The notes below the pieces were generated by a model. That model saw nothing but the letters and a program-made list of their open reading frames with translations, did no database searches and was not told the origin of the DNA. 64,000 nt of DNA, taken from NCBI GenBank assembly GCA_036268995.1, contig DATATB010000074.1, positions 5,195-69,194 of the forward strand. Direction: 5' to 3'. Positions 2,650 to 59,633 of this stretch are shown here, piece by piece. The DNA is from Pirellulales bacterium. GTDB taxonomy: Bacteria > Planctomycetota > Planctomycetia > Pirellulales > PNKZ01. A program made the translations under genes and the position numbers. Every line of letters starts with the position of its first letter. Positions within the stretch are counted from its first letter, which is position 1.

Positions 2650-2766
2650 CGAAGAAATCACAACTTGCGCTCCAACTAGGCTGGGGGGCAGGACGTGATG
2701 GTTTCTTCCAACGTGAGCTGGAAGCGGGCGGTATAGATGCTCTTTGACAATTTGGTGATAGTCGGC

Positions 2767-2799
2767 GCGAGTCCGGGGGCTGGCATCCTCCGGGCTCGC
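2767..2799. terminator. 13-bp stem / 7-nt loop hairpin between convergent genes
   Basis: GCGAGTCCGGGGG-CTGGCAT-CCTCCGGGCTCGC (11 Watson-Crick pairs plus 2 G:T). It lies about 120 nt after the stop at 2649 (+) and about 155 nt after the stop at 2955 (-). No U-run on either side. Confidence 0.3.
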
Positions 2800-2954
2800 T
2801 GACGGCCGTGGCATAAAGCTGTGCGGCCGCGCCAACAATGCTACTAGTCGTGGGAACCGACGATCGCCAACCGTTCCTCACGCTGCGCGAGCCGATCTCC
2901 AGATTGTCCGTCGCCCAGGAGATTGGGCCGAGCTCACGGCAACCGCCGCCAACT

Positions 2955-4349
2955 TTAGGCCGATTGCTGCTCGGCGGCGGCCACCTGGTTCAGCTTGTTG
3001 TACAGCGTTTTCAGGCTGATGCCGAGTTCTTCGGCGGCGCGGGGCTTGTTGCCTTTGTGCCGCTCGAGGGTCTGCTGAATGACCGATAGCTCGATTTCGC
3101 GCAGCGTCTGCGTGGTGCCGGCAATGGCCGGCTTGAAGTGCGGACCGCGCAGCTTCCGCTCGCCGAACTTATTGGGCAGTTGCGCGGCCGCGATCGGCCC
3201 TCGATCGCCGAGGATCGCGGCGTGTTCGATCACGTTGGCCAATTCGCGCACGTTGCCCGGCCAGGAATAGCCTTCGAGCGTTCGCAGGGCGTCGGGCTCG
3301 AACAGCTCATCGCCTGGCTTGAGCGTCGGGCGGAGCCGCTTGAGCAGATGCCGGGACAGCTCGGCAATGTCTTCGATCCGCTCGCGCAGCGCGGGCAGCC
3401 GGACTTCGAACGTGTTGATGCGGAACATCAGGTCCTGGCGAAATTCGCCGTCGGCCACCATTTGTTCCAGGTCGCGGTGCGTCGCGCATACGACCCGCAC
3501 GTCGACGACGAACGATTCGTTGTCCCCCACCCGGCGGATTTCGCCGCTTTCCAACACGCGCAGCAGCTTGGCTTGCATGGCCTTGGGCAGTTCGCCGATT
3601 TCGTCCAAAAATAGCGTGCCGCCGTTGGCCACTTCGAACAGGCCCACGCGGTGCTCGTCGGCGCCGGTAAAGGCGCCCTTGCGATGGCCGAACAGCTCGC
3701 TTTCGATCAGGCTTTCGGGCAAGCCGCCGCAATTGATCGCCACAAACGGCATCTCGGCCCGCAGGCTCTGATCGTGCAACGCCCGAGCCACCAGTTCCTT
3801 GCCGGTGCCGGTTTCGCCCAACACGAGCACGGTGGAATCGGTGGGCGCGATTTTCGAGATCATCTGCCGGACCTGCCGCATGCCGGCCGACGAGCCGATC
3901 AATTGCGAGCCGCCTTCCAGCCGCTCGAGCTGCCGCTTGACCGCGCGGTATTTGTTTGTGAGGTCGCGCTTCTCGGCCACGCGGGCCAGCAGCGCCTTGA
4001 GATCGATCAGCTTGCAGGGCTTGGTCAGATAGTCGAACGCCCCGTGCCGCAGCGCCGAGATCGCGCTGTCCATCGTCGATTTGCCGGTCAGCACCACCGC
4101 CTCGGTGTCGGGCGAAAGCTCCTTGGCCTTGGCGATCACGTCGATGCCCGAGGCGTGCGGCATGTTCAGATCGACGAGGATGCAGTCGTAGGTATTGCGC
4201 TCCAGCGCGGCGATGGCCGTAGCGCCGTCGGGGCAGACGGTGACTTCGTGCCCCAGTCGCGGCAGCTCGACGCTCATCAGCTCCTGCAGCGAGCGTTCGT
4301 CGTCGGCGAACAGCAGCTTGAGGCGATTATGCGGCTTGGTATCGATGAT
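2955..4349 (-). CDS. sigma-54-dependent response regulator (NtrC family: receiver + AAA+ + Fis-type HTH)
   Basis: Receiver domain (KLLFADDERS...ILVDLNMP...KP). AAA+ motifs GETGTGKE, GAFTGA and the ESELFGH loop. C-terminal HTH RAAEELGISLKTLYNKL. The start is uncertain: the ORF track gives ATG at 4499, deep inside the kinase gene. I place it at ATC 4349/4346, just after an AAGGAG at 4359-4354. Confidence 0.9.
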   Translation of the reverse strand: MIDTKPHNRLKLLFADDERSLQELMSVELPRLGHEVTVCPDGATAIAALERNTYDCILVDLNMPHASGIDVIAKAKELSPDTEAVVLTGKSTMDSAISALRHGAFDYLTKPCKLIDLKALLARVAEKRDLTNKYRAVKRQLERLEGGSQLIGSSAGMRQVRQMISKIAPTDSTVLVLGETGTGKELVARALHDQSLRAEMPFVAINCGGLPESLIESELFGHRKGAFTGADEHRVGLFEVANGGTLFLDEIGELPKAMQAKLLRVLESGEIRRVGDNESFVVDVRVVCATHRDLEQMVADGEFRQDLMFRINTFEVRLPALRERIEDIAELSRHLLKRLRPTLKPGDELFEPDALRTLEGYSWPGNVRELANVIEHAAILGDRGPIAAAQLPNKFGERKLRGPHFKPAIAGTTQTLREIELSVIQQTLERHKGNKPRAAEELGISLKTLYNKLNQVAAAEQQSA

Positions 4350-6106: not shown

Positions 6107-7474
6107 ATGTCCCGAGAAAGCGGCTCCGCTTTGATGGTCCGGCTAGCACGTATTGCCGCTGCCCTGAGGCCGCGTTCGGCGACTTCCGCCGGCTGCGTGC
6201 TGCTGGCATTGGTGCTCGCCGCGCTGCCAGCGTACCAGTTGTTTTGGCGCTACCAGCTCAAACGCTTTCAAGTGGTGCGGCCGGGCGTGTTGTACCGCTC
6301 GGGACAGCCGACGGAGTTCGGCCTCTCGCATTTGGCGCAGCGCGAAGGCGTGAAAACCGTCCTCTCGTTGCAGATGTTCGACCCCCTGCTCTACCGCGGG
6401 TGCTTCGATCCCGGCCGGGCCGACGGCGTCCGAGAGACCGCCTATCTGGAGTCGCTGGGTGTGCGGCTCGAGCAGTGGCCGCTGGGTGGCGAGTCGTATT
6501 GGCCTTGGATGACCCCCTGGCAGTTCGAAGCGTTCTTCCGCCTGCTCGACGATCCCGCCAATCTGCCGCTGGCCATGCACTGCTCCGGCGGCCGCCACCG
6601 CACCGGCACGCTGGCGGCCCTGTATCGCTTGGAATACGATCGCTGGCCGATCCAGCGGGCTTTGGACGAGATGTACTCGTTTACGTTCGGCCGGCCGATT
6701 CCCTTGCAGGAATACAATCTCCGGTCCTACGTGCCGCGGCCGCGGCCCGAGCCGGCCGAGTGGCAAGCCCTGCGCCAGGCTTTTTCGAATGCACAAGGCC
6801 TGGCCGACGACGACTACCAGTCGTTGGTGCGGCGACTGCGCGCAACGCGTAACTTGCCAGCGTGCCGGCAGGCGATTCAATCGTATCTGCGGCACGATGG
6901 CCCATTCGCATTGCCGCTGGCCGTGCGGTTGATTGACGCCCCAGCCGATCCGCTGGCAAATCTCGCCGCCAGCAAGGCGGCCGAATGTCTCGAGCGGCGG
7001 CATGCACCGCCGCACGATTGGCTGGCTGCGGCCGCACTGGTGGCCGATTTTGGCACCCCTGGGCAGCAATCGCGCCTGCTGGCACTGTTAAAAAACGAGG
7101 ACCGCAGGCGCGCCGTGACGCCGCGTTATGCCGCCGTCGTGTCGGGCATCAACAACCGCTACACGCGGAACCGCTTGCCATTCTTGCGCGTGGTCCTGGA
7201 CGACGTGCGCTGGTGTCCACAACCGGCGCTGAGGGACTGCCGTTTTTGCGACGTGGCGGTGGCCCATATCCTGGCAATCACCGACGAGCGCTCGATGGGC
7301 GACCAGGCGATCCGCGTGGCATGGGACGCGGCGCGGCGGCAAATCCGGCAATGGTTCGAGCGCCACGCCGATGCCGCGCAGCTTTGCCGGCTGATTCCCG
7401 CCGAAAACCGCAGCACGGTGATGGTCACCGACGGCCGCGGCGAAGACGAATTCAACTTGATCCATCGTTATTAG
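6107..7474 (+). CDS. protein tyrosine/dual-specificity phosphatase family protein with a helical-repeat C-terminal region
   Basis: N-terminal TM. CX5R active-site loop HCSGGRHRTGT preceded by VLYRSGQP...GVKTVLSL (Y_phosphatase3/Siw14-like pattern). The C-terminal roughly 200 aa are alpha-repeat-like. Confidence 0.75.
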   Translation: MSRESGSALMVRLARIAAALRPRSATSAGCVLLALVLAALPAYQLFWRYQLKRFQVVRPGVLYRSGQPTEFGLSHLAQREGVKTVLSLQMFDPLLYRGCFDPGRADGVRETAYLESLGVRLEQWPLGGESYWPWMTPWQFEAFFRLLDDPANLPLAMHCSGGRHRTGTLAALYRLEYDRWPIQRALDEMYSFTFGRPIPLQEYNLRSYVPRPRPEPAEWQALRQAFSNAQGLADDDYQSLVRRLRATRNLPACRQAIQSYLRHDGPFALPLAVRLIDAPADPLANLAASKAAECLERRHAPPHDWLAAAALVADFGTPGQQSRLLALLKNEDRRRAVTPRYAAVVSGINNRYTRNRLPFLRVVLDDVRWCPQPALRDCRFCDVAVAHILAITDERSMGDQAIRVAWDAARRQIRQWFERHADAAQLCRLIPAENRSTVMVTDGRGEDEFNLIHRY

Positions 7475-9209: not shown

Positions 9210-9275
9210 GTAGCGGAATTCGAGAGAATTCCGGGGGCGCACGATTGCGTCCGGAAGTCTCACGACTTCCGCTAC
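9210..9275. repeat. 66-bp GTAG...CTAC double-hairpin element (family C, copy 1)
   Basis: GTAG-CGGAATTC-GAGA-GAATTCCG ... CGGAAGTC-TCAC-GACTTCCG-CTAC. These are two inverted REP-like units. A near-identical copy is at 10506-10571 and a half copy at 39260-39299. Confidence 0.85.
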
Positions 9276-9431: not shown

Positions 9432-10496
9432 ATGCTCCGCTCGCCCAAGTTGATCTCGCTGGTCTTGCCGGTCTACAACGAGCAGGACGTGCTGCCGCTG
9501 TTGTTGCCGCGATTGCTGGCGCTGGCCGCCCAGTTGCCGTGCGCGGTCGAAATCATCTTTGTCAACGATGGCAGCCGCGATCGCACGGGCGTGCTGCTGG
9601 CCCAAGCGGCCGCCAGCCGGCCGGAAGTCAAGGTCATCGAGTTCTCGCGGAATTTCGGACACCAGGCCGCGATCACGGCCGGCACCGATTTCGCCAGCGG
9701 CGACGCCGTGGTGGTGATGGACGCCGATTTGCAAGACCCGCCGGAACTGGTCCTGGCGATGGTCGAGCAATACGGCCGCGGGTATGACGTGGTTTACGCC
9801 CAGCGGACGGCACGGCATGGCGAGACGCGCTTCAAGCGCGCGACGGCCGCCGTGTTTTACTGGCTGATGCAGCGGCTGGTTCACGAAGATCTGCCGGAAA
9901 ACGCCGGCGACTTCCGGCTGATGAGCCGCGAGGTGGTGGCGGCGCTGCGGCAGCTGCGCGAGCAGCACCGCTTTGTGCGCGGGATGGTCACGTGGGTCGG
10001 ATTTCGCCAGGTGGCGCTCCCCTTCGAGCGGCCGCCCCGTGCGGCCGGCCAGACCAAGTATCCGCTGCGAAAAATGCTGGCCTTCGCCTGGCGGGCGATC
10101 ACTTCATTTTCCGGCGTCCCTTTGCGATTGGCGCTATATGGAGGGGTTGCGCTCACTCTGCTCGCGCTCGGCTACGCCGGCTGGGCCGTGTACAAGGCAG
10201 TAGTGCTCGGCGAAACGGTGCGCGGCTGGGCCTCGCTGGTTTGCCTGCAAGTGGGCCTCTCGGGCATCACCTTCCTGATCATGGGGCTGGTGGGCGACTA
10301 CATCGCGCGCATCTACGAAGAAATCAAAGGCCGGCCGCTGTATATCGTGCGCGGGCTGGCCAACATCACGCTCGAAGGTGCGCAGCATCCGCTGCCACGG
10401 TCAGCCGTCTGCCTGCCCGCCGACGCTCCGGCCACGCTGCCGGCGCCGCACGCCCCACGCTGGGCCGCCGCGGAATCACGCGACGTGGCCGCCTGA
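9432..10496 (+). CDS. family 2 glycosyltransferase, polyprenyl-phosphate sugar synthase type (ArnC/GtrB/DPM1-like)
   Basis: SLVLPVYNE...IFVNDGSRDRT...VVMDADLQDPPE, followed by two C-terminal TM helices. This is the classic GtrB/ArnC architecture. Confidence 0.9.
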   Translation: MLRSPKLISLVLPVYNEQDVLPLLLPRLLALAAQLPCAVEIIFVNDGSRDRTGVLLAQAAASRPEVKVIEFSRNFGHQAAITAGTDFASGDAVVVMDADLQDPPELVLAMVEQYGRGYDVVYAQRTARHGETRFKRATAAVFYWLMQRLVHEDLPENAGDFRLMSREVVAALRQLREQHRFVRGMVTWVGFRQVALPFERPPRAAGQTKYPLRKMLAFAWRAITSFSGVPLRLALYGGVALTLLALGYAGWAVYKAVVLGETVRGWASLVCLQVGLSGITFLIMGLVGDYIARIYEEIKGRPLYIVRGLANITLEGAQHPLPRSAVCLPADAPATLPAPHAPRWAAAESRDVAA

Positions 10497-10505
10497 GTCC
10501 CGCCG

Positions 10506-10571
10506 GTAGCGGAATTCGTAAGAATTCCGAAATGTTGCCGAGAACGTCGGAAGTTTCACGACTTCCGCTAC
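10506..10571. repeat. 66-bp GTAG...CTAC double-hairpin element (family C, copy 2)
   Basis: GTAG-CGGAATTC-GTAA-GAATTCCG ... CGGAAGTT-TCAC-GACTTCCG-CTAC. Same length and orientation as copy 1. It sits 10 nt after the GT2 stop and 6 nt before the convergent PP2C stop. Confidence 0.85.
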
Positions 10572-10576
10572 AGCAT

Positions 10577-11866
10577 CTACGGCGCGTCGAGATCGACGGC
10601 GGGCTTGGCGCCGCGGGCTTGCTTGTTGCGCAGCTGCTGCATCATGAAGCTGATGGCGCGGCAGTAGGAGCGAATGGCGCCGGCGTAGTCTTGTGAAGTC
10701 ATGGCCGTTGATGCCTGGCGGCAGAGGCCGTCGAAGCGGGGCCAATCGATCTCCCAATGCTGTTGCACGGCTTCTTCGCGCAGCGGCTCGACCACGGCCG
10801 CCACGCGCTGGGCGGCGGCCAAATCGAGTTCGCAGACGTACGAACGGTGCGGTCCGCGGCCCAGGCGGGCGCCAGTACCCAGCGCCCGGTCTTCGCCTCC
10901 GCTGAAGCGGCGGAGAAACATTGTCAGCGCCGTGCCCAAGGCGGCAATGCCGAAGCCGGCCGCCGCGTAAAGCTGTTCGGTCAGGGCCAGCATGGCGGCG
11001 GCAAGAATCAAGACGCCCAGCGCGACCCACCAACCGGTCGCGATGGCCGGGCTGGAAGTCCCCCCGGATCGAGAAGCCACCACGCCCGGCGGCATCGACG
11101 CCACGCGCGCCACCAGCACGGTGATGTTGTCGGGACCGCCCCGCAGATTGGCCAGGTCTACCAGCGTGCGCGCCGCTTCCGCAGGCGGAAGCGTGGCCAG
11201 TATGATGCCCAAATCGGTATCGCCCACCGGCCCGCTCAGTCCGTCGCTGCACAGCAGAAACGTATCGCCGACGGCCAGCGGAAACGGCCCCTCGAGATCG
11301 ACTTGCACGTGGTCGGTCGGGCCCAGCGAGCGTGTGATGATATTCTTGGGAATGTAGCCCGGCATTTCGCCTTCGGTCAGCTTGTTGCCGGCCATCATCT
11401 CCCAGACCAGGCTATGGTCGAAGGATAACTGCTCCAGCCGATTGCCGCGCAGGCGATACACGCGGCTATCGCCCACGTGGGCCACGACGGCCCCCTCGGG
11501 CAGTAGCAGCAGCACGCTGGTGGTCGTGCCCATGCCTTTGAAGTCCGGATTGGCCTGACCGCCGGCGTGGATTTTGGCGTTGGCCTCTTCCACCGATTTG
11601 CGAATGGCGTCGGCCGGCGAGCGGTCGAGCAGCTTGTAGTAGGTCAGGCCGACGGTATCCACCGCCATTTTGCTGGCCAGTTCGCCGGCCGCATGAGCGC
11701 CCATGCCGTCGGCCACCATGAACAAGTGTCCGCGGCTCTGCCACTGATCCTGGGTGCCAGCCATGACCTGCTTCAGCGAATCCTGATTGTTCGAGCGGCG
11801 CAGGCCGACGTCGGTGACTTCAGCATGTTCCAAGAAGCTTTGCCAAGCAGGCAGATTGTTGTCCAT
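10577..11866 (-). CDS. PP2C-family Ser/Thr phosphatase with 2 TM and a C-terminal cytoplasmic domain
   Basis: TDVGLRRSNNQDS, FMVADGMGAHAAGE, GDSRVYRL, LLCSDGL and GGPDNITVLVARV. Start taken at the internal ATG 11866 (MDNNLPAWQ); the track ORF extends to 11932. Confidence 0.85.
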   Translation of the reverse strand: MDNNLPAWQSFLEHAEVTDVGLRRSNNQDSLKQVMAGTQDQWQSRGHLFMVADGMGAHAAGELASKMAVDTVGLTYYKLLDRSPADAIRKSVEEANAKIHAGGQANPDFKGMGTTTSVLLLLPEGAVVAHVGDSRVYRLRGNRLEQLSFDHSLVWEMMAGNKLTEGEMPGYIPKNIITRSLGPTDHVQVDLEGPFPLAVGDTFLLCSDGLSGPVGDTDLGIILATLPPAEAARTLVDLANLRGGPDNITVLVARVASMPPGVVASRSGGTSSPAIATGWWVALGVLILAAAMLALTEQLYAAAGFGIAALGTALTMFLRRFSGGEDRALGTGARLGRGPHRSYVCELDLAAAQRVAAVVEPLREEAVQQHWEIDWPRFDGLCRQASTAMTSQDYAGAIRSYCRAISFMMQQLRNKQARGAKPAVDLDAP

Positions 11867-19806: not shown

Positions 19807-20003
19807 GCGGCTCGATTCCTTTCATCCAGGCGCTCGCCGGCGCCGGCTATCATGCGGTCAAGGCGCGGGAATTCTAACCCCCACAGGAAATCGAGGCAAG
19901 GCAACCAGAACCACGGCTTAGGCTTAGTGCGCTTGCCGCCACCCGCCAACGGCAGTCCTGGAGCCCGGTGGCTGAAATTCCCCCGCCAAAAAACGAAAAC
20001 ATT

Positions 20004-20102
20004 GAACAGAAGATCGCAAAGAGCGCAAAGACGATTTCATTCTGTGACTGACCTTCTCTCTTCTTCCTTTTCGTTCTTCGCGCTCTTCGCGATCTTCTGT
20101 TC
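20004..20102. repeat. imperfect ~31-bp inverted repeat (GAACAGAAGATCGCAAAGAGCGCAAAG family)
   Basis: The left arm at 20004-20034 pairs with the right arm at 20071-20102 (2 substitutions + 1 indel). A related, more diverged element is at 62609-62726. Confidence 0.75.
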
Positions 20103-20157
20103 GATCCTCCTCGTTTCTCGTGTTCCCAGTCGTCATGCGACGAGTTGAACGGCTCGT

Positions 20158-24880: not shown

Positions 24881-25687
24881 ATGGCCCGCCTGTCGATGAA
24901 CGAAATGACGACCTTTCGCTGGTCGCTGGACGAGGATATCGCCCACTATCGCGCGGCTGGCATCGGGGCCATCGGCATCTGGCGGCAGAAGCTCGCCGAT
25001 TTCGGCGAAGAAAAAGGCTTGGAGCTTTTGGCCGAGAGCGGGCTGAAAGTTTCGAATCTGCTGTGGGCCGGCGGTTTTACCGGCAGCGACGGCCGCAGTC
25101 TCAAAGACAGCATCGAAGACGCCCTGGACGCCGTGCGCCTGGCGGCCGAGTTGCAGGCTTCGGCCCTGGTGGTCTACAGCGGATCGCGTGCCGGGCATAC
25201 GCACAGTCACGCCCGGCGGCTGGTGAAAGACGCCTTGGGAAAAATGCTGCAACTGGCCGACGAGCTCGACGTGACGCTGGCCCTGGAGCCGATGCACAGC
25301 GACTGTGCCGGCGAATGGACTTTTCTCACCTGCTTGGACGATACGCTGGCACTGCTCGAATCCGTGGCCCATCCGCGGCTGAAGCTGGCGTTCGACACGT
25401 ATCATCTCGGCTGGGACCCGAAAACACTGGCGCGGATTCCGGAACTCGCGCCGCGAGTGGGTATCGTGCATCTGGGCGATGGCCGCCGCCCGCGCGATCG
25501 CGAGCAGGACCGCAGCCCGCTCGGTTGCGGCGCGATTCCGCTGCGCGAGATTGTCTCGTCTCTCCGCGCGGCCGGCTACGACGGCTACTACGACGTCGAG
25601 CTGATCGGCCCTGAAATCGAAACGGCCGACTATCACGATCTACTGCGGCGCAGCAAAGAGACCTTTGAGCAGCTCATCGCGCCGTAA
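24881..25687 (+). CDS. sugar phosphate isomerase/epimerase (xylose-isomerase-like TIM barrel)
   Basis: 268 aa. ALEPMH...FDTYHLG...VHLGD pattern of the AP_endonuc_2 / TIM-barrel family. Confidence 0.8.
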   Translation: MARLSMNEMTTFRWSLDEDIAHYRAAGIGAIGIWRQKLADFGEEKGLELLAESGLKVSNLLWAGGFTGSDGRSLKDSIEDALDAVRLAAELQASALVVYSGSRAGHTHSHARRLVKDALGKMLQLADELDVTLALEPMHSDCAGEWTFLTCLDDTLALLESVAHPRLKLAFDTYHLGWDPKTLARIPELAPRVGIVHLGDGRRPRDREQDRSPLGCGAIPLREIVSSLRAAGYDGYYDVELIGPEIETADYHDLLRRSKETFEQLIAP

Positions 25688-25707: not shown

Positions 25708-25778
25708 GTAGGGTGGGCACTGCCCACCGTTTGCGCCCCGCATGAATCGGGGCCAATGGTGGGCAGTGCCCACCCTAC
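25708..25778. repeat. 71-bp GTAG...CTAC element with 21-bp perfect inverted arms (family E); likely bidirectional terminator
   Basis: GTAGGGTGGGCACTGCCCACC, a 29-nt spacer, then GGTGGGCAGTGCCCACCCTAC. Each arm is itself a small hairpin. It lies between convergent stops at 25687 and 25792. Confidence 0.85.
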
Positions 25779-25791
25779 GATTCGAGTTGCT

Positions 25792-27333
25792 CTACAAGGC
25801 AAACGCCAGGTCGATGGCCGCCAGCCTGGCGCTGAATTCGTCCGCCGACGTGTCATCCGCGGTCGACGCGTCGTCGTTCGATGAATCGAGAGATGCTGCC
25901 GCGCTGGCTATCGGCGCGATCGGCTGCTGCGCCGATACGATTGCCGTACTGACCGATGGATTGGTGACGATCGTGGCCGCGGGGACATTCAGCGTGACCA
26001 CCTGCGCCGCCATGATGACCGGCAGCGCCTGCGTCACCTGGGAGGAAACTGACTCAACCGTAGTCGGCTCCGGCTGAGCCGGCGCGGAGGCGGGCGGTTG
26101 CGGAGTGTGGTCGGCATCGACCACAACCAGGTCAAACGTGAATGGCCCAGCGGCGCTGCTACTCGTTGCATCGGCGCCCACGACCAAGAGGCTATCGTTG
26201 CTACCGAGCGCAACGCCGGATTCCATATAAAGGGCCGACGGTTCGCTCGCGAAACCGCCGTCACCGTAGTTCGTATCGAGGCTTCCGTCGGCGTAAAAGG
26301 TTGCTGCGGACAGGCCGGATTGGAATCCCGTGACCGGTGATGTAGCGGACGTGACCACAATCTTGCCGTCGCTTTGAACAATCATCCCGGCAATATCCGT
26401 CGGGATGGTCTCGTTAGGAATGTCCGCCGTGACGATTCCGGTGCCGTTGAAACTAGTATCAAGGCTGCCATTGTCGTTGAAGCGGAGCAGCTCATATTCC
26501 GCGGCCCCGGTCGATTGATCCACGCCCGTCGTCGCCAGCAAGATTTTGCCGTCGGGCTGTACCGTAATAGCTTCTTTGTTCCCCCGAGCAGAATCGAACG
26601 GGGCCGTTAAATTGCCTGACTGCCCGAACGTGGTATCAACGGACCCATCGCTGTTGAGCCGAATCAAGTGCAGGCCGTCGGAGCTGTCGCCGATCAAAAG
26701 AATCCGCCCTTGCGCGTCTACCGTCATTGGCGCACCGGGAAGAAGGTCAGAATCCAAACGCGCCGCATCAAAGTGAAACGTCGTGTCGAGCGTGCCATCG
26801 GCGTTAAAGCGCTCAAGCGTTGCCGAACCCGTGACACTTGCGCCGACCAGGATCTTCCCATCGTTTTGAAACGCCACCGAGGGGAGCACGGCCGGGTCGT
26901 TGAGCGAGAGCTCGCCTCCATCGCCGAATGAAGTGTCTACCGATCCGTCCGCCTCAACGTGAATGAGCGTCGTAGTGGGCAGTTGGCCGTTGTTGAGGTT
27001 AGCCTGGCCAAGGACATAAAATGAGCCGTCGCTCTCCAGGTGAATCTGTTGAACTTCCTCCAGGTTGAGATTGCCGGAGCTCGTCACGCCACCAGCACCG
27101 AAGCTCGTGTTCAGCGTGCCATCGGAGTTATAGCGCGCGATTTGCAAACCGCCATTATCAATGCCGGCGACCAGGATCGTGCCGTCCGGTTCCTGGGCCA
27201 CCGCTTGCGAAAGGCCGGGGACCTGCGGCTGGTCCGCAGGCGTGGTCGACGTGCTGGCCGACATCAGCATGCGGTCTTCCAAGACCTCGAAGCGCAAGAG
27301 CCGGTCGACGCATATCGCCTTGGAACTGCTCAT
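25792..27333 (-). CDS. secreted delta-60-repeat (beta-propeller-like) protein
   Basis: N-terminal LRFEVLEDRMLMSA motif, common in planctomycete exported proteins. At least 6 repeats of the type DG(S/T)(L/V)DT(S/T)FG.GG spaced about 55-60 aa apart. Ser/Ala/Pro-rich tail. Confidence 0.7.
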   Translation of the reverse strand: MSSSKAICVDRLLRFEVLEDRMLMSASTSTTPADQPQVPGLSQAVAQEPDGTILVAGIDNGGLQIARYNSDGTLNTSFGAGGVTSSGNLNLEEVQQIHLESDGSFYVLGQANLNNGQLPTTTLIHVEADGSVDTSFGDGGELSLNDPAVLPSVAFQNDGKILVGASVTGSATLERFNADGTLDTTFHFDAARLDSDLLPGAPMTVDAQGRILLIGDSSDGLHLIRLNSDGSVDTTFGQSGNLTAPFDSARGNKEAITVQPDGKILLATTGVDQSTGAAEYELLRFNDNGSLDTSFNGTGIVTADIPNETIPTDIAGMIVQSDGKIVVTSATSPVTGFQSGLSAATFYADGSLDTNYGDGGFASEPSALYMESGVALGSNDSLLVVGADATSSSAAGPFTFDLVVVDADHTPQPPASAPAQPEPTTVESVSSQVTQALPVIMAAQVVTLNVPAATIVTNPSVSTAIVSAQQPIAPIASAAASLDSSNDDASTADDTSADEFSARLAAIDLAFAL

Positions 27334-38082: not shown

Positions 38083-38193
38083 GAAGTGAATAGTGGAAAG
38101 TGAAAAGTGAAAAATGAAAAATGTCGGACAAGGGTCGCTCGCCGAAGCACTCGTTCTTTTACTTTCCACTTTTCACTGTTCACTTTTCACTTC
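38083..38193. repeat. ~37-bp imperfect inverted repeat (GAAGTGAAAAGTGAA family) filling the whole intergenic gap
   Basis: The left arm gaagtgaatagtggaaagtgaaaagtgaaaaatgaaaa pairs with ttttactttccacttttcactgttcacttttcacttc, with a spacer of about 36 nt. It occupies 111 of the 124 nt between the GTPase stop and the polX start. Confidence 0.8.
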
Positions 38194-39227: not shown

Positions 39228-39299
39228 GCATAAAGCCGCGACCGCTGGTCGCGAGCGGACGGAATTCTCACGAGACGGAATTCTCACGAATTCCGCTAC
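39228..39299. repeat. family D hairpin plus a half/duplicated family C unit
   Basis: cataaagccgcgaccgctggtcgcg (39228-39252), then cggaattctcacgaga-cggaattctcacgaattccgctac ending in CTAC (39260-39299). The loop read in GTAG orientation is GTGA. Confidence 0.75.
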
Positions 39300-46305: not shown

Positions 46306-49194
46306 GTGGGTTGGCCGTCCATGAATCATCCAGCGCTAGACGCGGACCAACCGTTCGGATGTCCGACGATGGCCGAACTCGAGCGGTTTGGCCTGGGAGA
46401 CTTGCCGGACGAAACGCTGGAGACGATTGCGCAGCACGTGGCCTTTTGCGCCGCTTGCGAACAGAGGCTTGGCCGCCTGTCGTCGTGCGACGACCGGGTC
46501 ACGATGGCGCTGCGTGCCCAGGTCGCGCCGCCGGCCTACGACGAAGCCGAGCTGGCGCGCGTCGTCCGCCAAATCGACGAGGTGTCGCGGACGCCCGCCC
46601 CCCCTGCCGACGCCCAAGCGCCGGACGCATTGACCTCATCGATCGTCATCCAACCGATGCCACGGGAGATCGAGCCGCTGGTGCGGTCCTTGCTGGCCAG
46701 CGGCTTGATTGGGGCGGACGAATTGACACGCTTGCGCTCAAATCTTCCGTCCGCCGATCCCGGGCGCGAAGCCGAACAACTGGCGCTCGAATTGGTACGT
46801 TGCGGCAAGCTCACGCGCTACCAGGCGGCCGTGCTGTATCAGCAGCGGCGCGATCCGCTGGTGCTGGGAGAGTATGTCGTGCTCGATCGGATCGGCGCGG
46901 GCGGAATGGGTCAGGTGTTCAAAGCCCGGCACGGCCGCATGGATCGGCTGGTGGCGATCAAGCTAGTCAGCCCGAGCCTGGTCGACGCGCCCGAAGCGGT
47001 CGATCGGTTTCAGCGCGAGGTTCGCGCGGTTGCCCGGCTCGAGCATGCGAACATCGTGACCGCGTTCGATGCCGGCGAACTGGATGGCACGCCGTTCCTG
47101 GTGATGCAGCTTGTCGACGGCAGCGACCTGTCGTCAGTGGTCAAGCAACGCGGCCCACTGGCCGTCCCCGTCGCGATCGAGTGCATCCGGCAGGCAGCCA
47201 AGGGGCTGGCCTACGCGCATCGCAAGGGGGTGATTCACCGCGATGTTAAGCCATCGAACATGCTGCTGGACGCCGACGGCACGATCAAAATCTTGGACCT
47301 GGGCCTGGCACGCTTCGAGGACGCCGGCGACGGGCTGACGTGTTCCGACCAGGTGATGGGCTCGATCGACTACATGAGTCCCGAGCAAGCGGTCGACTCC
47401 AGGCAAGCCGATGCCCGCTCGGATATCTACAGTCTGGGCTGCACGCTGTGGCATCTGCTCTCGGGGCGGAAGCTCTACCAGGCGGACACGCCGGTCACGC
47501 GCATCTTGCGCCATCGCGAAGCGCCGATCCCTTCGCTTTGTCAGGAGCGCGATGACGTGCCTGCCGCGCTGGACGGGGTCTTTCGCAAGCTGGTCGCCAA
47601 GCAACCGGCCGACCGCTATCAATCGATGGACGAAGTCGCCGCAGCGCTGGAGCAGTTGCAGGCCCAAATCCCCTCGCAAGCCGGCCAGCGCTCGAAGATA
47701 TTGGCCGAATTGCACGCAGCCGCCGCGATCGCTGGCGGAAATCGCCCTGTCGAGCCGACAGCCGAAGTGAAAGGGCCGCCGCCGGCGATTGAGGCCACCG
47801 CGAGCTATGCGGCTGCTGAGGTCGAAACGGATCCCACAAGTGAATGGGTTGTCCCTCGGCTCGCGGAACAAGGTAAAGACGAACGGGAGCCGGTCCCGCA
47901 CGGCGCTCGCCGGCACAGGCCGCGCGGCATGCTGATGGCCGGCGCATCGCTGCTCGGGCTGATCGCGGTTCTGGGCTTGATCGTAGCGCTGCGCTTGCGC
48001 CCGGCGGAGCATGCGGCCGACGTGCGCAACCTCGCGGCGAGCCGCGACCGCAACGCAGCGGCTCCATCGAGCGCGTCCCCGCAACTCGCCGCGCTGACGC
48101 CTGGCGTTCGCCCCTCGCCGATTGATCCGCCCGACCCATTGGTCGCTCCCTTCGACGCCCAGCAAGCCCACGCCGGTCAGGAGGCCTGGGCCAAATACTT
48201 GAACACGGGCGTCGAGCAGACCAACTCGATCGGCATGACGCTGGTGCTGATCCCGCCCGGTGAGTTCATGATGGGCAGCGCGCCCGAGCAGGCCGCCGGG
48301 GGCGCGAAACTGGCCGAGGACGCCAAACTAACACCCAGTGACTACCTTTGGACACGGTTGAAAGAGGAAGGGCCACAACATCGGGTCGCGATCACGAAAC
48401 CCTACTGGCTTGGCGCGACGGAAGTGACGATCGGCCAGTTCAAGAAGTTTGTCGAGGCCACCGGGTACGTGACCGAGGCCGAGCAGTTCGGGTTCGGCAA
48501 TTCAAGCGCGACGAACGTGGATGACAAGGTGACGCCGGAAATGAAGAAGATAACCTGGCGCGCACCAGGCTACCCCGTTACCGACGATTCCCCGGTAACG
48601 CAAATCACCTGGAACGATTGCATCGTGTTCTGTAATTGGTTGAGCGAACAAGAAAAGTTGCAGCCCTGTTATCAGCAAGATGCCAACGCCGGCTGGGAAC
48701 TGAATGTAGCAGGCACACTCCGTGTGCCGTCGCCACGCAGCGAGGAAGGTCGCGACACACGGAGTGTGCCTACTACATTCGAAGATTTCGGCTACCGGCT
48801 ACCGACCGAAGCCGAGTGGGAATACGCCTGCCGCGCCGGCACGACGACGCAGTTTTCATTCGGCGACGATCCGGCCATGCTCGACATCTATGGGTGGTTC
48901 AATAAGAACGCCGGTGAAAGTGCCCATCCCGTGGGCTCGAAGGCCGCAAATCCATTTGGCCTGTTTGACATGCACGGCAACGTCTACGAGTGGTGCCACG
49001 ATTTCTACGCGGCGGACTACTACTCGAAGTCCCCGCCACGCGACCCAGTCGGCCCGTCTTCTGGTAGGTATCGCGTGAGCCGTGGCGGTTTCTGGTGCGT
49101 CTATCCGGTTTGCTGCCGCTCGGCGTTTCGCTACCCCTACAAGCCCGCCCTCCGACACGAGAGCTTCGGTTTTCGGGTGCTGCGGGGGAAATAG
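46306..49194 (+). CDS. Ser/Thr protein kinase with an N-terminal Cys-motif region, a TM and a C-terminal FGE/SUMF1-type domain
   Basis: N-terminal HVAFCAACEQRL. Kinase motifs GAGGMGQVFKA, HRDVKPSNMLL, DLGLAR and SPEQ. A TM (LMAGASLLGLIAVLGLIVAL). FGE-sulfatase domain (GMTLVLIPPGEFMMGS, RLPTEAEWEYACRAGT, GNVYEWCHD, RGGFW). Start at GTG 46306 or ATG 46321. Confidence 0.9.
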   Translation: MGWPSMNHPALDADQPFGCPTMAELERFGLGDLPDETLETIAQHVAFCAACEQRLGRLSSCDDRVTMALRAQVAPPAYDEAELARVVRQIDEVSRTPAPPADAQAPDALTSSIVIQPMPREIEPLVRSLLASGLIGADELTRLRSNLPSADPGREAEQLALELVRCGKLTRYQAAVLYQQRRDPLVLGEYVVLDRIGAGGMGQVFKARHGRMDRLVAIKLVSPSLVDAPEAVDRFQREVRAVARLEHANIVTAFDAGELDGTPFLVMQLVDGSDLSSVVKQRGPLAVPVAIECIRQAAKGLAYAHRKGVIHRDVKPSNMLLDADGTIKILDLGLARFEDAGDGLTCSDQVMGSIDYMSPEQAVDSRQADARSDIYSLGCTLWHLLSGRKLYQADTPVTRILRHREAPIPSLCQERDDVPAALDGVFRKLVAKQPADRYQSMDEVAAALEQLQAQIPSQAGQRSKILAELHAAAAIAGGNRPVEPTAEVKGPPPAIEATASYAAAEVETDPTSEWVVPRLAEQGKDEREPVPHGARRHRPRGMLMAGASLLGLIAVLGLIVALRLRPAEHAADVRNLAASRDRNAAAPSSASPQLAALTPGVRPSPIDPPDPLVAPFDAQQAHAGQEAWAKYLNTGVEQTNSIGMTLVLIPPGEFMMGSAPEQAAGGAKLAEDAKLTPSDYLWTRLKEEGPQHRVAITKPYWLGATEVTIGQFKKFVEATGYVTEAEQFGFGNSSATNVDDKVTPEMKKITWRAPGYPVTDDSPVTQITWNDCIVFCNWLSEQEKLQPCYQQDANAGWELNVAGTLRVPSPRSEEGRDTRSVPTTFEDFGYRLPTEAEWEYACRAGTTTQFSFGDDPAMLDIYGWFNKNAGESAHPVGSKAANPFGLFDMHGNVYEWCHDFYAADYYSKSPPRDPVGPSSGRYRVSRGGFWCVYPVCCRSAFRYPYKPALRHESFGFRVLRGK
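48706..48776. repeat. 71-bp GTAG...CTAC double-hairpin element embedded in frame inside the kinase-FGE gene
   Basis: GTAGCAGGCACACTCCGTGTG, a 29-nt spacer, then CACACGGAGTGTGCCTACTAC. The arms are 21 bp with 1 mismatch. This is the same 21/29/21 geometry as the intergenic element at 25708-25778. It translates as ..VAGTLRVPSPRSEEGRDTRSVPTT.. Confidence 0.85.
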
Positions 49195-49341: not shown

Positions 49342-49782
49342 ATGAACGAACCGATCCGCGAAGAGCTTTGGCGATCGGTGGCGCCGCTGCTGGCCGGGCA
49401 AAAAAAGGTCGGTGCCGGCAGGCCCAAGATCGACGACCGGCTGGTCCTGGGCGGGATTGTCTTTGTGCTGCGGACAGGAATCCCCTGGGCCCGCCTGCCT
49501 CGGCGGGCAGGCTTGGGCTCGGGCATGACCTGCCTGCGACGCTTGCGCGCCTGGCAGGCGGCGGGCCGCTGGCCGGAAATCGAGCAGTTGCTCAAACGAC
49601 ATCTCCCATTCGCCCAGGAAATCGACTGGCAGCGCGCGTACCACGACCGTCGACAACGACGCGGCGGCTTGCGGTCCCGCGCGGCCGCCATGCCGGCTCG
49701 GCCGAACCATTACGAGTTTCGCACCGATCGCCTGAGCACGTTGGCCCAAGGCCTGTTGGATAACTTCGAGGTCGTGCAATGA
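49342..49782 (+). pseudogene. truncated IS5-family (DUF4096-type N-terminus) transposase remnant
   Basis: ELWRSVAPLL..GRPKIDDRLVLGGIVFVLRTGIPWARLP...MTCLRRLRAWQAAGRWPEI matches the N-terminal region of IS5/IS4-type transposases. Similarity ends after IDWQRA..GG. No DDE domain is visible in any frame downstream. Confidence 0.6.
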
Positions 49783-57645: not shown

Positions 57646-57702
57646 GGGAGGGCGAGGCTCCTGCCGAGCCGCATGATGGCTCGGCAGGAGCCTCGCCCTC
57701 CC
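57646..57702. repeat. 25-bp perfect-stem hairpin (7-nt loop) between zwf and rpiA
   Basis: GGGAGGGCGAGGCTCCTGCCGAGCC-GCATGAT-GGCTCGGCAGGAGCCTCGCCCTCCC. The right side continues as GCTAC (CTAC end at 57704-57707). No U-run follows. Confidence 0.85.
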
Positions 57703-58428: not shown

Positions 58429-59633
58429 GCGGTTCCGTGCTCTCCGTCAACGGCGGCTCCTCCAGCATCAAGTTCGCCCTCTATAAAAGGGGTCAGAACT
58501 ATTTTTCGCAGAAAAATAGTTCTGACCCCTTTATTTCGGGGCAGATCGAGCGGATCGGGTCGGCGGAGGCGCGGCTGCGGGTCGGGGACGAGCGGCGGGC
58601 GGTCGCGGCGGCCGATCATGCGCAGGCGGTGCTGCGGTTGGTCGAGTGGTTTCAAGAGCACGGCGGGCTGGACGACGTGGCGGCCATCGGGCATCGCATC
58701 GTGCACGGCGGACAGCACTACGTGCAGCCGGCGCGGGTCACGCCCGAAATGCTGGCAGAGCTCAAGCGGCTGGTGCCGATCGATCCGACGCACCTGCCCG
58801 GCGAGATCGCGCTCATCGAGGCCTTCGAGCGCCACCTGCCCAAGGTGCCGCAAGTGGCCTGTTTCGACACGGCCTTTCATCGCCAACTGCCGCGCGTGGC
58901 CTGGCTGCTGCCGCTTCCCCGCCGTTACGCGGCGCAGGGCGTGCGGCGCTACGGCTTTCACGGCTTGTCGTTCACCTATCTGATGGCCGAGCTCGCGCGT
59001 TTGGATCCGGCGGCGGCTGGCGGCCGCGTGGTGCTGGCCCATCTCGGGTCGGGAGCGAGCATGGCGGCCGTGCGCGGCGGCCAGCCGATCGACACCACCA
59101 TGTCGTTCACGCCGGCCGCCGGCCTGGTGATGGGCACGCGCACCGGCGACATCGATGCTGGCGTGCTCACGTACTTGATGCGGACCGAGGGGCTGAACGC
59201 CGATCAAATCGACGACCTGGTGAACCATCAATCCGGCCTGCTGGGCATGTCCGAGACCAGCGCCGACATGCGCGATTTGCAAGCACGCCGCCACGAAGAT
59301 CCACGGGCCGACGACGCAGTGACCGGCTTTTGCTATTCGGCCCGCAAATGGATCGGAGCACTGACCGCGATCCTGGGCGGAATCGAGACTCTGGTGTTCA
59401 GCGGCGGCATCGGCGAGAACGCGCCGGCTGTCCGAGCCGAAATCTGCCAGGGGCTCGAACATCTCGGCATGCGCTTGGACGCCGGGCGCAATGAACAGAC
59501 CGAAGCGGTGATTTCGTCCGGCGAGAGCCCCTGCTGCGTGCGGGTTATCCACACCAATGAGGAAGCGGTGATCGTGGAACAGGTGCGGCAATTGATCGCC
59601 GGCCCATCGGTAAAGAAAGGCAGCACGGCATGA
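58425..59633 (+). CDS. ackA: acetate kinase
   Basis: [46 protein letters not shown] and GGIGEN. ATG 58425 overlaps the rpiA stop, and the ackA stop overlaps the xfp start. Confidence 0.9.
58485..58531. repeat. AT-rich 21-bp perfect inverted repeat (5-nt loop) embedded in frame in ackA
   Basis: AAAGGGGTCAGAACTATTTTT-CGCAG-AAAAATAGTTCTGACCCCTTT. About one-third GC within a GC-rich gene. It encodes ..[19 protein letters not shown].. in the variable loop between the SSSIKF motif and IERIG. Confidence 0.9.

Follow-up and report, generated by a model that had tools for sequence, protein, structure and literature searches.

Host gene and palindromic element

The DNA analysed, hereafter the window, is a stretch of 64,000 nt from a Pirellulales bacterium (assembly GCA_036268995.1, contig DATATB010000074.1, positions 5,195–69,194). 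Within it lies a gene for a Ser/Thr kinase fused to an FGE-sulfatase-like domain (Table 1), in whose 962-aa product Pfam detected a Pkinase domain (residues 190–439, 1.9e-47) and an FGE-sulfatase domain (PF03781, residues 645–960, 4.8e-54). Sequence matches for the latter among solved structures were the Protein Data Bank entries 2y3c and 6muj. A palindromic element occupies positions 48706–48776, and both the single open frame of the gene and the Pfam match to the FGE domain continue unbroken across it. It is likely that this element is a dimer of GTAG-headed repetitive extragenic palindromic (REP) sequences, with an anatomy like that of the REP doublets forming hairpins (REPINs), which entered the part of the gene coding for the FGE-like domain and was tolerated there.

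The two arms of the element, GTAGCAGGCACACTCCGTGTG (48706–48726) and CACACGGAGTGTGCCTACTAC (48756–48776), are 21 nt each, inverted, with one mismatch, and lie 29 nt apart. This is as described in the first-pass annotation of the window, which had also correctly placed the element within the continuous 962-aa frame and inside the FGE domain. The inverted repeat can be extended to arms of 28 nt (48702–48729 and 48753–48780) that are 93% complementary. Each arm also contains a small hairpin of its own, with a stem of 7 bp and a loop of 3 nt (GGCACAC-TCC-GTGTGCC), and begins with a GTAG head, which is unpaired and lies next to the palindrome. The element thus pairs two inverted REP units across a short spacer and can fold into a single long hairpin. 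For a region of 91 nt, predicted folding energies were −52.1 kcal/mol for RNA and −31.4 kcal/mol for DNA (z = −8.8 and −8.5, respectively), and chance matches to the arm in the window numbered 0 in 100 shuffles. An Rfam search of the whole window returned no family at the gathering threshold. An intrinsic terminator inside the kinase-FGE gene was considered and rejected, there being no T-tract or U-tract and no terminator called at the element.

The window contained 11 units made up of GTAG plus a hairpin, versus 1.3 in shuffles (an enrichment of about 9-fold), and these belong to at least three sequence families, designated A, B and C. The element in the kinase-FGE gene is a member of family C, which has the stem GGCACAC.

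Table 1. Positions in the window of the host gene, of the parts of the family-C element and of the other GTAG units
Feature	Position	Strand	Remarks
Host gene, Ser/Thr kinase fused to FGE-sulfatase-like domain	46306–49194	+	962 aa; from ORF list and Pfam
Net insertion relative to homologues	48706–48777	+	72 nt = 24 codons, VAGTLRVPSPRSEEGRDTRSVPTT, residues 801–824; from loop length, codon layout and pLDDT
Whole inverted repeat with A/T-rich flanks	48702–48780	.	GAAT...ATTC; flanks fit family consensus AAA-GTAG...CTAC-TTT
Left REP unit	48706–48728	+	GTAG head, CA and hairpin GGCACAC-TCC-GTGTGCC; same as commonest family unit
Spacer between the 23-nt units	48729–48753	.	GTCGCCACGCAGCGAGGAAGGTCGC; unique sequence
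Right REP unit, inverted	48754–48776	-	GTAGTAGGCACACTCCGTGTGTC on minus strand; 1 mismatch versus second-commonest family unit
Family-A GTAG dimer	9210–9275	.	Stem GGAATTC; just 3' of PMT_2 glycosyltransferase gene
Family-A GTAG dimer, second copy	10506–10571	.	Just 3' of GT2 glycosyltransferase gene (9432–10496)
Family-A partial cluster	near 39260–39299		Unit at 39299
Family-B GTAG dimer	25708–25778	.	Stem GGTGGGCA, 71 nt; between convergent genes 24881–25687 (+) and 25792–27333 (-)

Evidence for an in-frame insertion

The element begins on a codon boundary (AAT-GTA-GCA-GGC...), and the start GTA-GCA means that the TAG of the GTAG head stays out of frame. To place the element relative to homologues, 120 proteins were retrieved with the C-terminal 362 aa of the host protein, and loop length was taken as the spacing from the motif W..A..FCNW to the motif YRLPTEAEWE. 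The loop measured 27 aa in 26 proteins of the closest subfamily and 24–26 aa in seven more, versus 51 aa in the window protein. The difference between 51 and 27 aa indicates that exactly 24 aa, or 72 nt (48706–48777), were added, and the gap of about 24 aa that the first-pass annotation had expected among orthologues is therefore present. Over 240 FGE-family proteins the segment between the two motifs spans 8–60 aa, so that the length of this loop is naturally variable. At the loop position a long segment of unrelated sequence is also found in 2y3c, the closest of the solved structures. The REP insert itself was carried by just two of the 240 retrieved FGE proteins.

A structure model of residues 640–962 was built with AlphaFold2 from an alignment of 71 sequences, and had a mean predicted local distance difference test (pLDDT) score of 91.9 and a predicted template modelling score of 0.90. 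The model matched the FGE fold in Foldseek (2q17, 6s07 and 6muj, E about 1e-21). Its sole low-confidence blocks (pLDDT 53, 55 and 68) cover domain residues 161–190, overlapping the insert at 162–185. The insert was modelled as coil, lacking any predicted secondary structure, and a beta-hairpin precedes it at domain residues 150–160. The best-supported interpretation of the model is that the insert forms a tolerated, disordered surface loop and leaves the fold intact. Mapping onto a structure had been proposed in the first-pass annotation, and of the three options considered there (a tolerated loop insertion, a very recent event or exaptation of the repeat-encoded peptide) the first is the one best supported. 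Each of the checks proposed there that could be carried out gave a result in favour of the annotation.

Searches with the insert itself were less informative. A homology search with the junction peptide returned short fragments only (≤156 aa), none of which carried REP peptides; it also missed P0006, the second insert-bearing protein described below, and little weight is placed on it as regards recurrence. An HMMER search with the 32-aa insert region against 1.84 billion representatives gave no hit at E ≤ 0.001, the query being too short.

Repeat family C across genomes

The distribution of family C was examined with the 23-mer GGCACACGGAGTGTGCCTRCTAC, using one genome per species, and at least 120 loci were obtained. 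Among the matches listed, exact copies of the 23-mer lie in Pirellulales, Gemmataceae, Thermoguttaceae, Planctomycetaceae, Tepidisphaeraceae, Kuenenia and Poribacteria, and the poribacterial loci include complete chromosomes. Family C also occurred on single contigs assigned to Verrucomicrobiales and Alcaligenaceae, although such short contigs of metagenome-assembled genomes (MAGs) could be mis-binned. At least 168 exact units were present in the at least 120 loci, with several loci per MAG, and GTAGCAGGCACACTCCGTGTGCC was the commonest unit (87 times among the matches listed).

The commonest layout of the family was the inverted dimer, of which at least 65 were found, with total lengths of 49–198 nt and with spacers that vary in both length and sequence across loci. 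A length of 71 nt is therefore no constant of the family. The first-pass annotation had drawn attention to the same 21/29/21 geometry in the dimer at 25708–25778; both elements are indeed 71 nt long, but they belong to different families (C and B), and the agreement is a coincidence rather than a rule. Over the 65 dimers listed the flanks followed the consensus AAA-GTAG...CTAC-TTT, and the flanks of the window element (AAT and ATT) agree with this preference. No consistent target-site duplication was detected around these dimers, since 42 of the 65 had no direct repeat and the others had one of 1–4 nt; the combination of terminal inverted repeats with a target-site duplication of fixed length was thus not seen in family C.

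When 57 distinct units of the family were compared, each of the positions G1, T2, A3 and G4 was conserved in at least 90%. In the 7-bp stem, 90% of cells were paired and compensatory changes occurred in six of the seven pairs; the covariation score was reached by none of 500 shuffles, and slid controls scored far lower. This covariation indicates that the small hairpin is a conserved structural unit of family C. As is the case for GTAG-type REPs, family C is mainly extragenic, with 135 of 181 elements (among the matches listed) lying outside any long stop-free stretch.

Two other arrangements of the family should also be noted. Tandem arrays of units in the same orientation were found on a poribacterial chromosome (OY282374.1; locus L019, 569–780 and 3513–3779) and in locus L058 (3930–4072). 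They have a period of about 40–42 nt, made up of the 23-nt unit and a spacer of 17–19 nt, and differ from the inverted dimers; such arrays could pass for a miniature array of clustered regularly interspaced short palindromic repeats (CRISPR). In locus L044, tandem paralogues of an FGE-domain gene (449–1312 and 2717–3613) occur together with family-C dimers at 1506–1672, 3716–3882 and 6143–6307, the dimers following the FGE genes by about 100 nt on the 3' side. These dimers are 165–167 nt long and their long spacer is conserved in all three, which is the sole case seen of a whole dimer being repeated; it could reflect a segmental duplication or a true REPIN-like unit.

Family C inside other genes

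The remaining 46 of the 181 elements (among the matches listed) lie within long stop-free stretches. As long spurious open reading frames (ORFs) are common in GC-rich DNA, the longest ten of these stretches were checked with Pfam, and three were unmistakably genuine genes in which matched Pfam domains flank the element. In locus L005 the order is PSD4, element, PSCyt3 and PSD2; in L109 an element lies in a gene for an HI0933-like flavoprotein; and in L077 a single unit lies in a DEAD-box helicase gene. The reading frame of the units differs by gene, giving VAGTLRVP and GTRSVPAT or SRHTPCA and RHTECACY, and the frame that would turn GTAG into a TAG stop is never used. With regard to a possible hot-spot in FGE genes, no family-C unit other than that of L001, described below, was found inside an FGE gene among 120 sampled loci.

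A different arrangement was seen in locus L116 (4606–4688, minus strand), where the reading frame runs through three family-C units in tandem, giving GTRRVASTEDGTRSVPTTKDGTRSVPDT. They lie near the C-terminus of a stop-free frame of 1143 aa with DNA methylase (PF01555) and SAP domains. A separate palindromic unit of 29 nt is present at 1945–1973 in the neighbouring ResIII-helicase frame.

A second kinase-FGE gene with an insertion

A second case (P0006) was found in locus L001, a metagenome-assembled contig, in which a kinase-FGE gene pair lies downstream of an extracytoplasmic function (ECF) sigma factor. A 71-nt family-C dimer is present there at 11075–11145, matching that of the window gene in loop and in codon phase, and is translated as VAGSLREPSPEPAQANGTRSVPTT. 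This amounts to the independent assembly that had been called for as a check: an element of this type lies in frame at the corresponding loop in a different organism, and this speaks against an artefact of assembly. The two hosts are 58% identical in the amino acid sequence of the FGE domain and 43% in that of the kinase domain, and 63–68% identical at the DNA level. The right arms of the two elements are identical. The left arm of L001 carries two paired substitutions (GGCTCAC/GTGAGCC), which might suggest compensatory evolution in situ; this is not claimed, because locus L028 has the same variant unit, which is therefore a variant of the family. No second copy of the window spacer GTCGCCACGCAGCGAGGAAGGTCGC, nor of the L001 spacer, was found in 1.3 Mb of related sequence.

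The two elements could go back to one ancient insertion in an ancestral kinase-FGE gene, kept in the lineages of the window and L001 and precisely lost elsewhere, with selection, or gene conversion involving copies elsewhere in the genome, keeping the arms close to the consensus. Such an origin is favoured by the common loop, the common codon phase and a GTCGCC extension after the left hairpin in both, by the kinase-FGE architecture with an upstream ECF sigma factor in both, and by the shared length of 71 nt, which is rare among the 65 dimers listed. However, each insert-bearing domain has closer relatives that lack the insert: once the inserts are removed, P0006 shares 70% identity with P0104 and 69% with P0014, and the window domain 63% with P0007, compared with only 59% between the two domains that carry an insert. 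P0104 (locus L203) is moreover syntenic with P0006, the shared order being a gene of about 455 aa, a gene of 136 aa on the opposite strand, the kinase and the FGE gene, with a DNA identity of 70–75%. Its loop has the standard length of 27 aa (W-L-V-A-A-L-A-D-G-Y) and no element, which implies that the L001 insertion is younger than the split between P0006 and P0104. The residues around the insert also differ (WELN..FEDFGY versus WI..LGY), the central 19 nt of the two elements are unrelated, with identity at the random level, and a minimum of two or three precise excisions would have to be assumed. A single insertion is therefore considered unlikely.

Two independent insertions, one in the window lineage and one in that of L001, are the most parsimonious explanation of these comparisons and probably the correct one. 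The net gain in L001 was 19 aa, as against the clean 24 aa in the window, indicating that about five loop residues were also lost in L001. On this explanation the shared length of 71 nt would be a mild coincidence, estimated from the in-frame constraint and the length distribution of the dimers to be of the order of 1 in 20.

It should also be noted that in L001 (9147–11563), L202 (4917–7770) and L203 (4754–7137) the kinase and the FGE domain were called as two overlapping ORFs, where the window has a single ORF of 962 aa. These calls represent either real split genes or frameshift errors of assembly.

Comparison with known palindromic repeats

The element resembles REPINs in that two inverted REP hairpins form a larger hairpin, in its GTAG head and in the occurrence of several families in one genome. 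The GTAG head is of the kind recognised by REP-associated tyrosine transposases (RAYTs) of the HUH-tyrosine type, and the cognate RAYT (PF01797) is typically flanked by REPs. In Pseudomonas, both spacer and length of REPINs are reportedly conserved, and the whole doublet is said to replicate together with a cognate single-copy RAYT, a view associated with Bertels and Rainey in 2011 and Nunvar and colleagues in 2010. In contrast, the spacers of family C are unrelated and its dimers range in length from 49 to 198 nt across loci. Classic REPIN families are also lineage-specific, whereas a near-identical family-C unit spans several classes and phyla.

A functional resemblance exists to the Rickettsia palindromic elements, which are said to be palindromic selfish repeats lying in frame in protein-coding genes that remain intact (a description credited to Ogata and colleagues in 2000), with their peptide segments reportedly placed in regions compatible with the fold. 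As in those elements, the window element is in frame and leaves the ORF and the predicted fold intact. The likeness is one of function only and membership is not claimed, as taxon and length set the two apart by description: RPE-1 is said to be roughly 100–150 bp long and restricted to Rickettsia. The Rickettsia elements are also cited in a survey of GTAG-tagged REPs, where RPE-4 and RPE-6 are stated to correspond to CGTC-type and not to GTAG-type REPs (Di Nocera, De Gregorio & Rocco 2013, BMC Genomics 14:522, PMC3733652).

The closest likeness is to the GTAG-tagged REPs themselves. As presented in the text and supplements of that survey, these have a GTAG head and a stem of 6–9 bp, form dimers with variable spacers of 20–100 bp, are mostly intergenic, either 3' of ORFs or between convergent ORFs, and were reported in Planctomycetes and in Opitutus terrae, a bacterium of the Planctomycetes-Verrucomicrobia-Chlamydiae superphylum (PMC3733652). 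A minority of the dimers lie inside known genes and encode 20–30 aa; one of them, a GTAG-18 dimer of O. terrae, is listed in the supplement as a 24-aa insert in Oter_0490 (PMC3733652). The statement in the first-pass annotation that REPs are normally extragenic is accordingly true as a rule, although in-frame GTAG-REP dimers of this size had already been documented in the same source. The window element shares with those GTAG REPs its head, stem-loop, inverted dimer and position within a gene. Neither a kinase-FGE host nor recurrence in one loop of two distant homologues is described in those parts of the survey, and the stem GGCACAC and the peptides of family C were not found in its text or supplements, which do not include the consensus figure of its 24 families. 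Nothing on the hairpin sequence of family C was found in the searchable literature. Intragenic GTAG-REP dimers are thus already known, and what the window element adds is a repeat family shared by Planctomycetota and Poribacteria; it is no new kind of system.

Proposed mobilisation and probable fate of the insert

By analogy with other GTAG REPs, the element may have been mobilised by single-strand transposition of hairpin DNA by a RAYT-type HUH tyrosine transposase. Three features would explain why the insertion survived. It starts on a codon boundary, so that the TAG within GTAG does not act as a stop codon; the added length is exactly 24 codons; and it would have landed in a loop of naturally variable length after a small beta-hairpin, where it presumably forms a disordered surface loop on an intact fold. 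The effect on the protein is suspected to be near-neutral, and the very stable mRNA hairpin (−52 kcal/mol) could have a side effect on translation or on mRNA stability.

Several observations weigh against an inserted and tolerated REP dimer. No RAYT or Y1 transposase was found by a scan for the HUH...YxxNP motif in the window or in 200 related loci (about 1.3 Mb), and tblastn with the E. coli RayT on the window and related loci gave a best E of 0.24. A weak RayT match in L065 was inspected and is not a transposase. Because RAYTs are usually single-copy, their absence from the window and these loci leaves strict membership of the REPINs unproven; the REP/REPIN-like character assigned in the first-pass annotation holds for the anatomy and for the large family of GTAG-headed hairpins, and no further than that. 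The 64-kb window contains one family-C dimer only. A close relative with an empty site was not found in the collections searched (best 51–63% identity), and a metagenome scan for such relatives reached a best identity of 51%. Lastly, the agreement between the window and L001 in loop, phase and length of 71 nt is only partly explained by a filter of selection on the insertions that survive.

This agreement would be expected if family C were more than a selfish repeat of one lineage, namely an element conserved across phyla (Planctomycetia, Phycisphaerae, Brocadiia and Poribacteria) with a near-invariant 23-mer and a stem kept by covariation, and if it inserted in a site-directed manner at a pre-existing GTN-GCN (Val-Ala) sequence mimicking the GTAGC head. 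The combination of these two properties is regarded as rather doubtful. If it were true, the two independent hits in the FGE loop, with the same phase and 71 nt, would reflect targeting like the choice of a tetranucleotide by IS200/IS605, and the two genes with their relatives would provide a natural system of filled and empty sites for REP insertion.

To return to a tolerated insertion, its chief competitor as regards the fate of the insert is exaptation, in which the peptide (VAGTLRVP...GTRSVPTT) or the mRNA hairpin would have been selected, for example as a regulatory pause, an RNase site or an interaction loop. Recurrence in the same loop of two distant kinase-FGE genes is compatible with this, as are arms close to the consensus, the extreme stability of the mRNA hairpin and a 23-mer that is conserved across phyla with a covarying stem. 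What is conserved, however, is the DNA and its hairpin and not the peptide: the paired substitutions in the left arm of L001, a variant also present in L028, replace Thr with Ser and Val with Glu and keep the hairpin. The central peptides of the window and L001 genes are unrelated, other frames of family C are read in unrelated proteins, the insert is predicted to be disordered, and there is no terminator-like tail and no Rfam family. With an insert in only two of the 240 retrieved FGE proteins, exaptation is judged very improbable, and this option of the first-pass annotation gained no positive support. It is most likely, as far as can be judged from sequence comparison, that the insert is tolerated rather than useful, because the central peptide is not conserved, conservation acts at the level of the hairpin and so few FGE proteins carry it.

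An artefact of assembly or sequencing, or a chance palindrome in an ancestral loop, is scarcely credible. The exact 962-aa protein is not on record, so that no independent assembly of the exact locus was available, but the frame is exactly preserved and conserved FGE motifs come after the element. The arm is also identical to units of a repeat family present in hundreds of copies, a like arrangement occurs in the independent assembly of another organism (L001), and the chance expectation is zero.

The locus would then illustrate cleanly how a protein can take up a selfish palindromic repeat, here as a predicted disordered loop, and such uptake is one way for proteins to gain new loop sequence. 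What places it slightly above the routine is the breadth of family C across phyla and the independent hit, at the same loop and phase, in a distant homologue. Work on how REPs choose their insertion sites could begin from the filled site of L001 and the empty site of L203, taken together with the window. For annotation, the motifs VAGTLRVP, GTRSVP[AT]T, SRHTPCA and RHTECA[CY]Y should be recognised as repeat-derived, whether in real proteins or in spurious small ORFs.

Other repeats in the window

Family A consists of inverted dimers of 66 nt with the sequence GTAGCGGAATTCG..GAATTCCG, and family B has the unit GTAGGGTGGGCA-CT-GCCCACC. The presence of families A, B and C in one window indicates that the genome carries several GTAG-REP families. 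The dimers of families A and B all lie between genes, and the convergent genes on either side of the family-B dimer encode AP_endonuc_2 and DUF5122 proteins. The two family-A dimers at 9210 and 10506 were considered as a possible REPtron, which was rejected as the gene between them encodes a family 2 glycosyltransferase (GT2) and not a transposase. The GAATTC stem of family A would encode peptides resembling those of R. baltica GTAG-21 (SRIRQEF...) as given in the supplement of the GTAG survey (PMC3733652). A B-like unit, GTAGTGTGGGCATTGCCCAC, was also seen in L001, just past the stop codon of the FGE gene (about 11609–11628, minus strand).

Four strong inverted repeats of the window have no GTAG head. 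They comprise arms of 31 nt of the type AGAAGATCGCAAAGAGCGCAAAGA (20001–20105), an A-rich palindrome of 26 nt of the type AAGTGAAAAGTGAAAAATG (38098–38192), perfect 25-nt arms GGGAGGGCGAGGCTCCTGCCGAGCC (57646–57702) and perfect 22-nt arms AAAGGGGTCAGAACTATTTTTC (58486–58532), and are probably further repeat families of the genome.

Directly downstream of the kinase-FGE gene, an ORF of 146 aa (49342–49782, plus strand) matches DUF4096 (E = 5.8e-20), which forms the N-terminal part of transposases of the IS4/IS5 family. This ORF appears to be a fragment of an insertion sequence, and would indicate that the locus has had other mobile-element activity.

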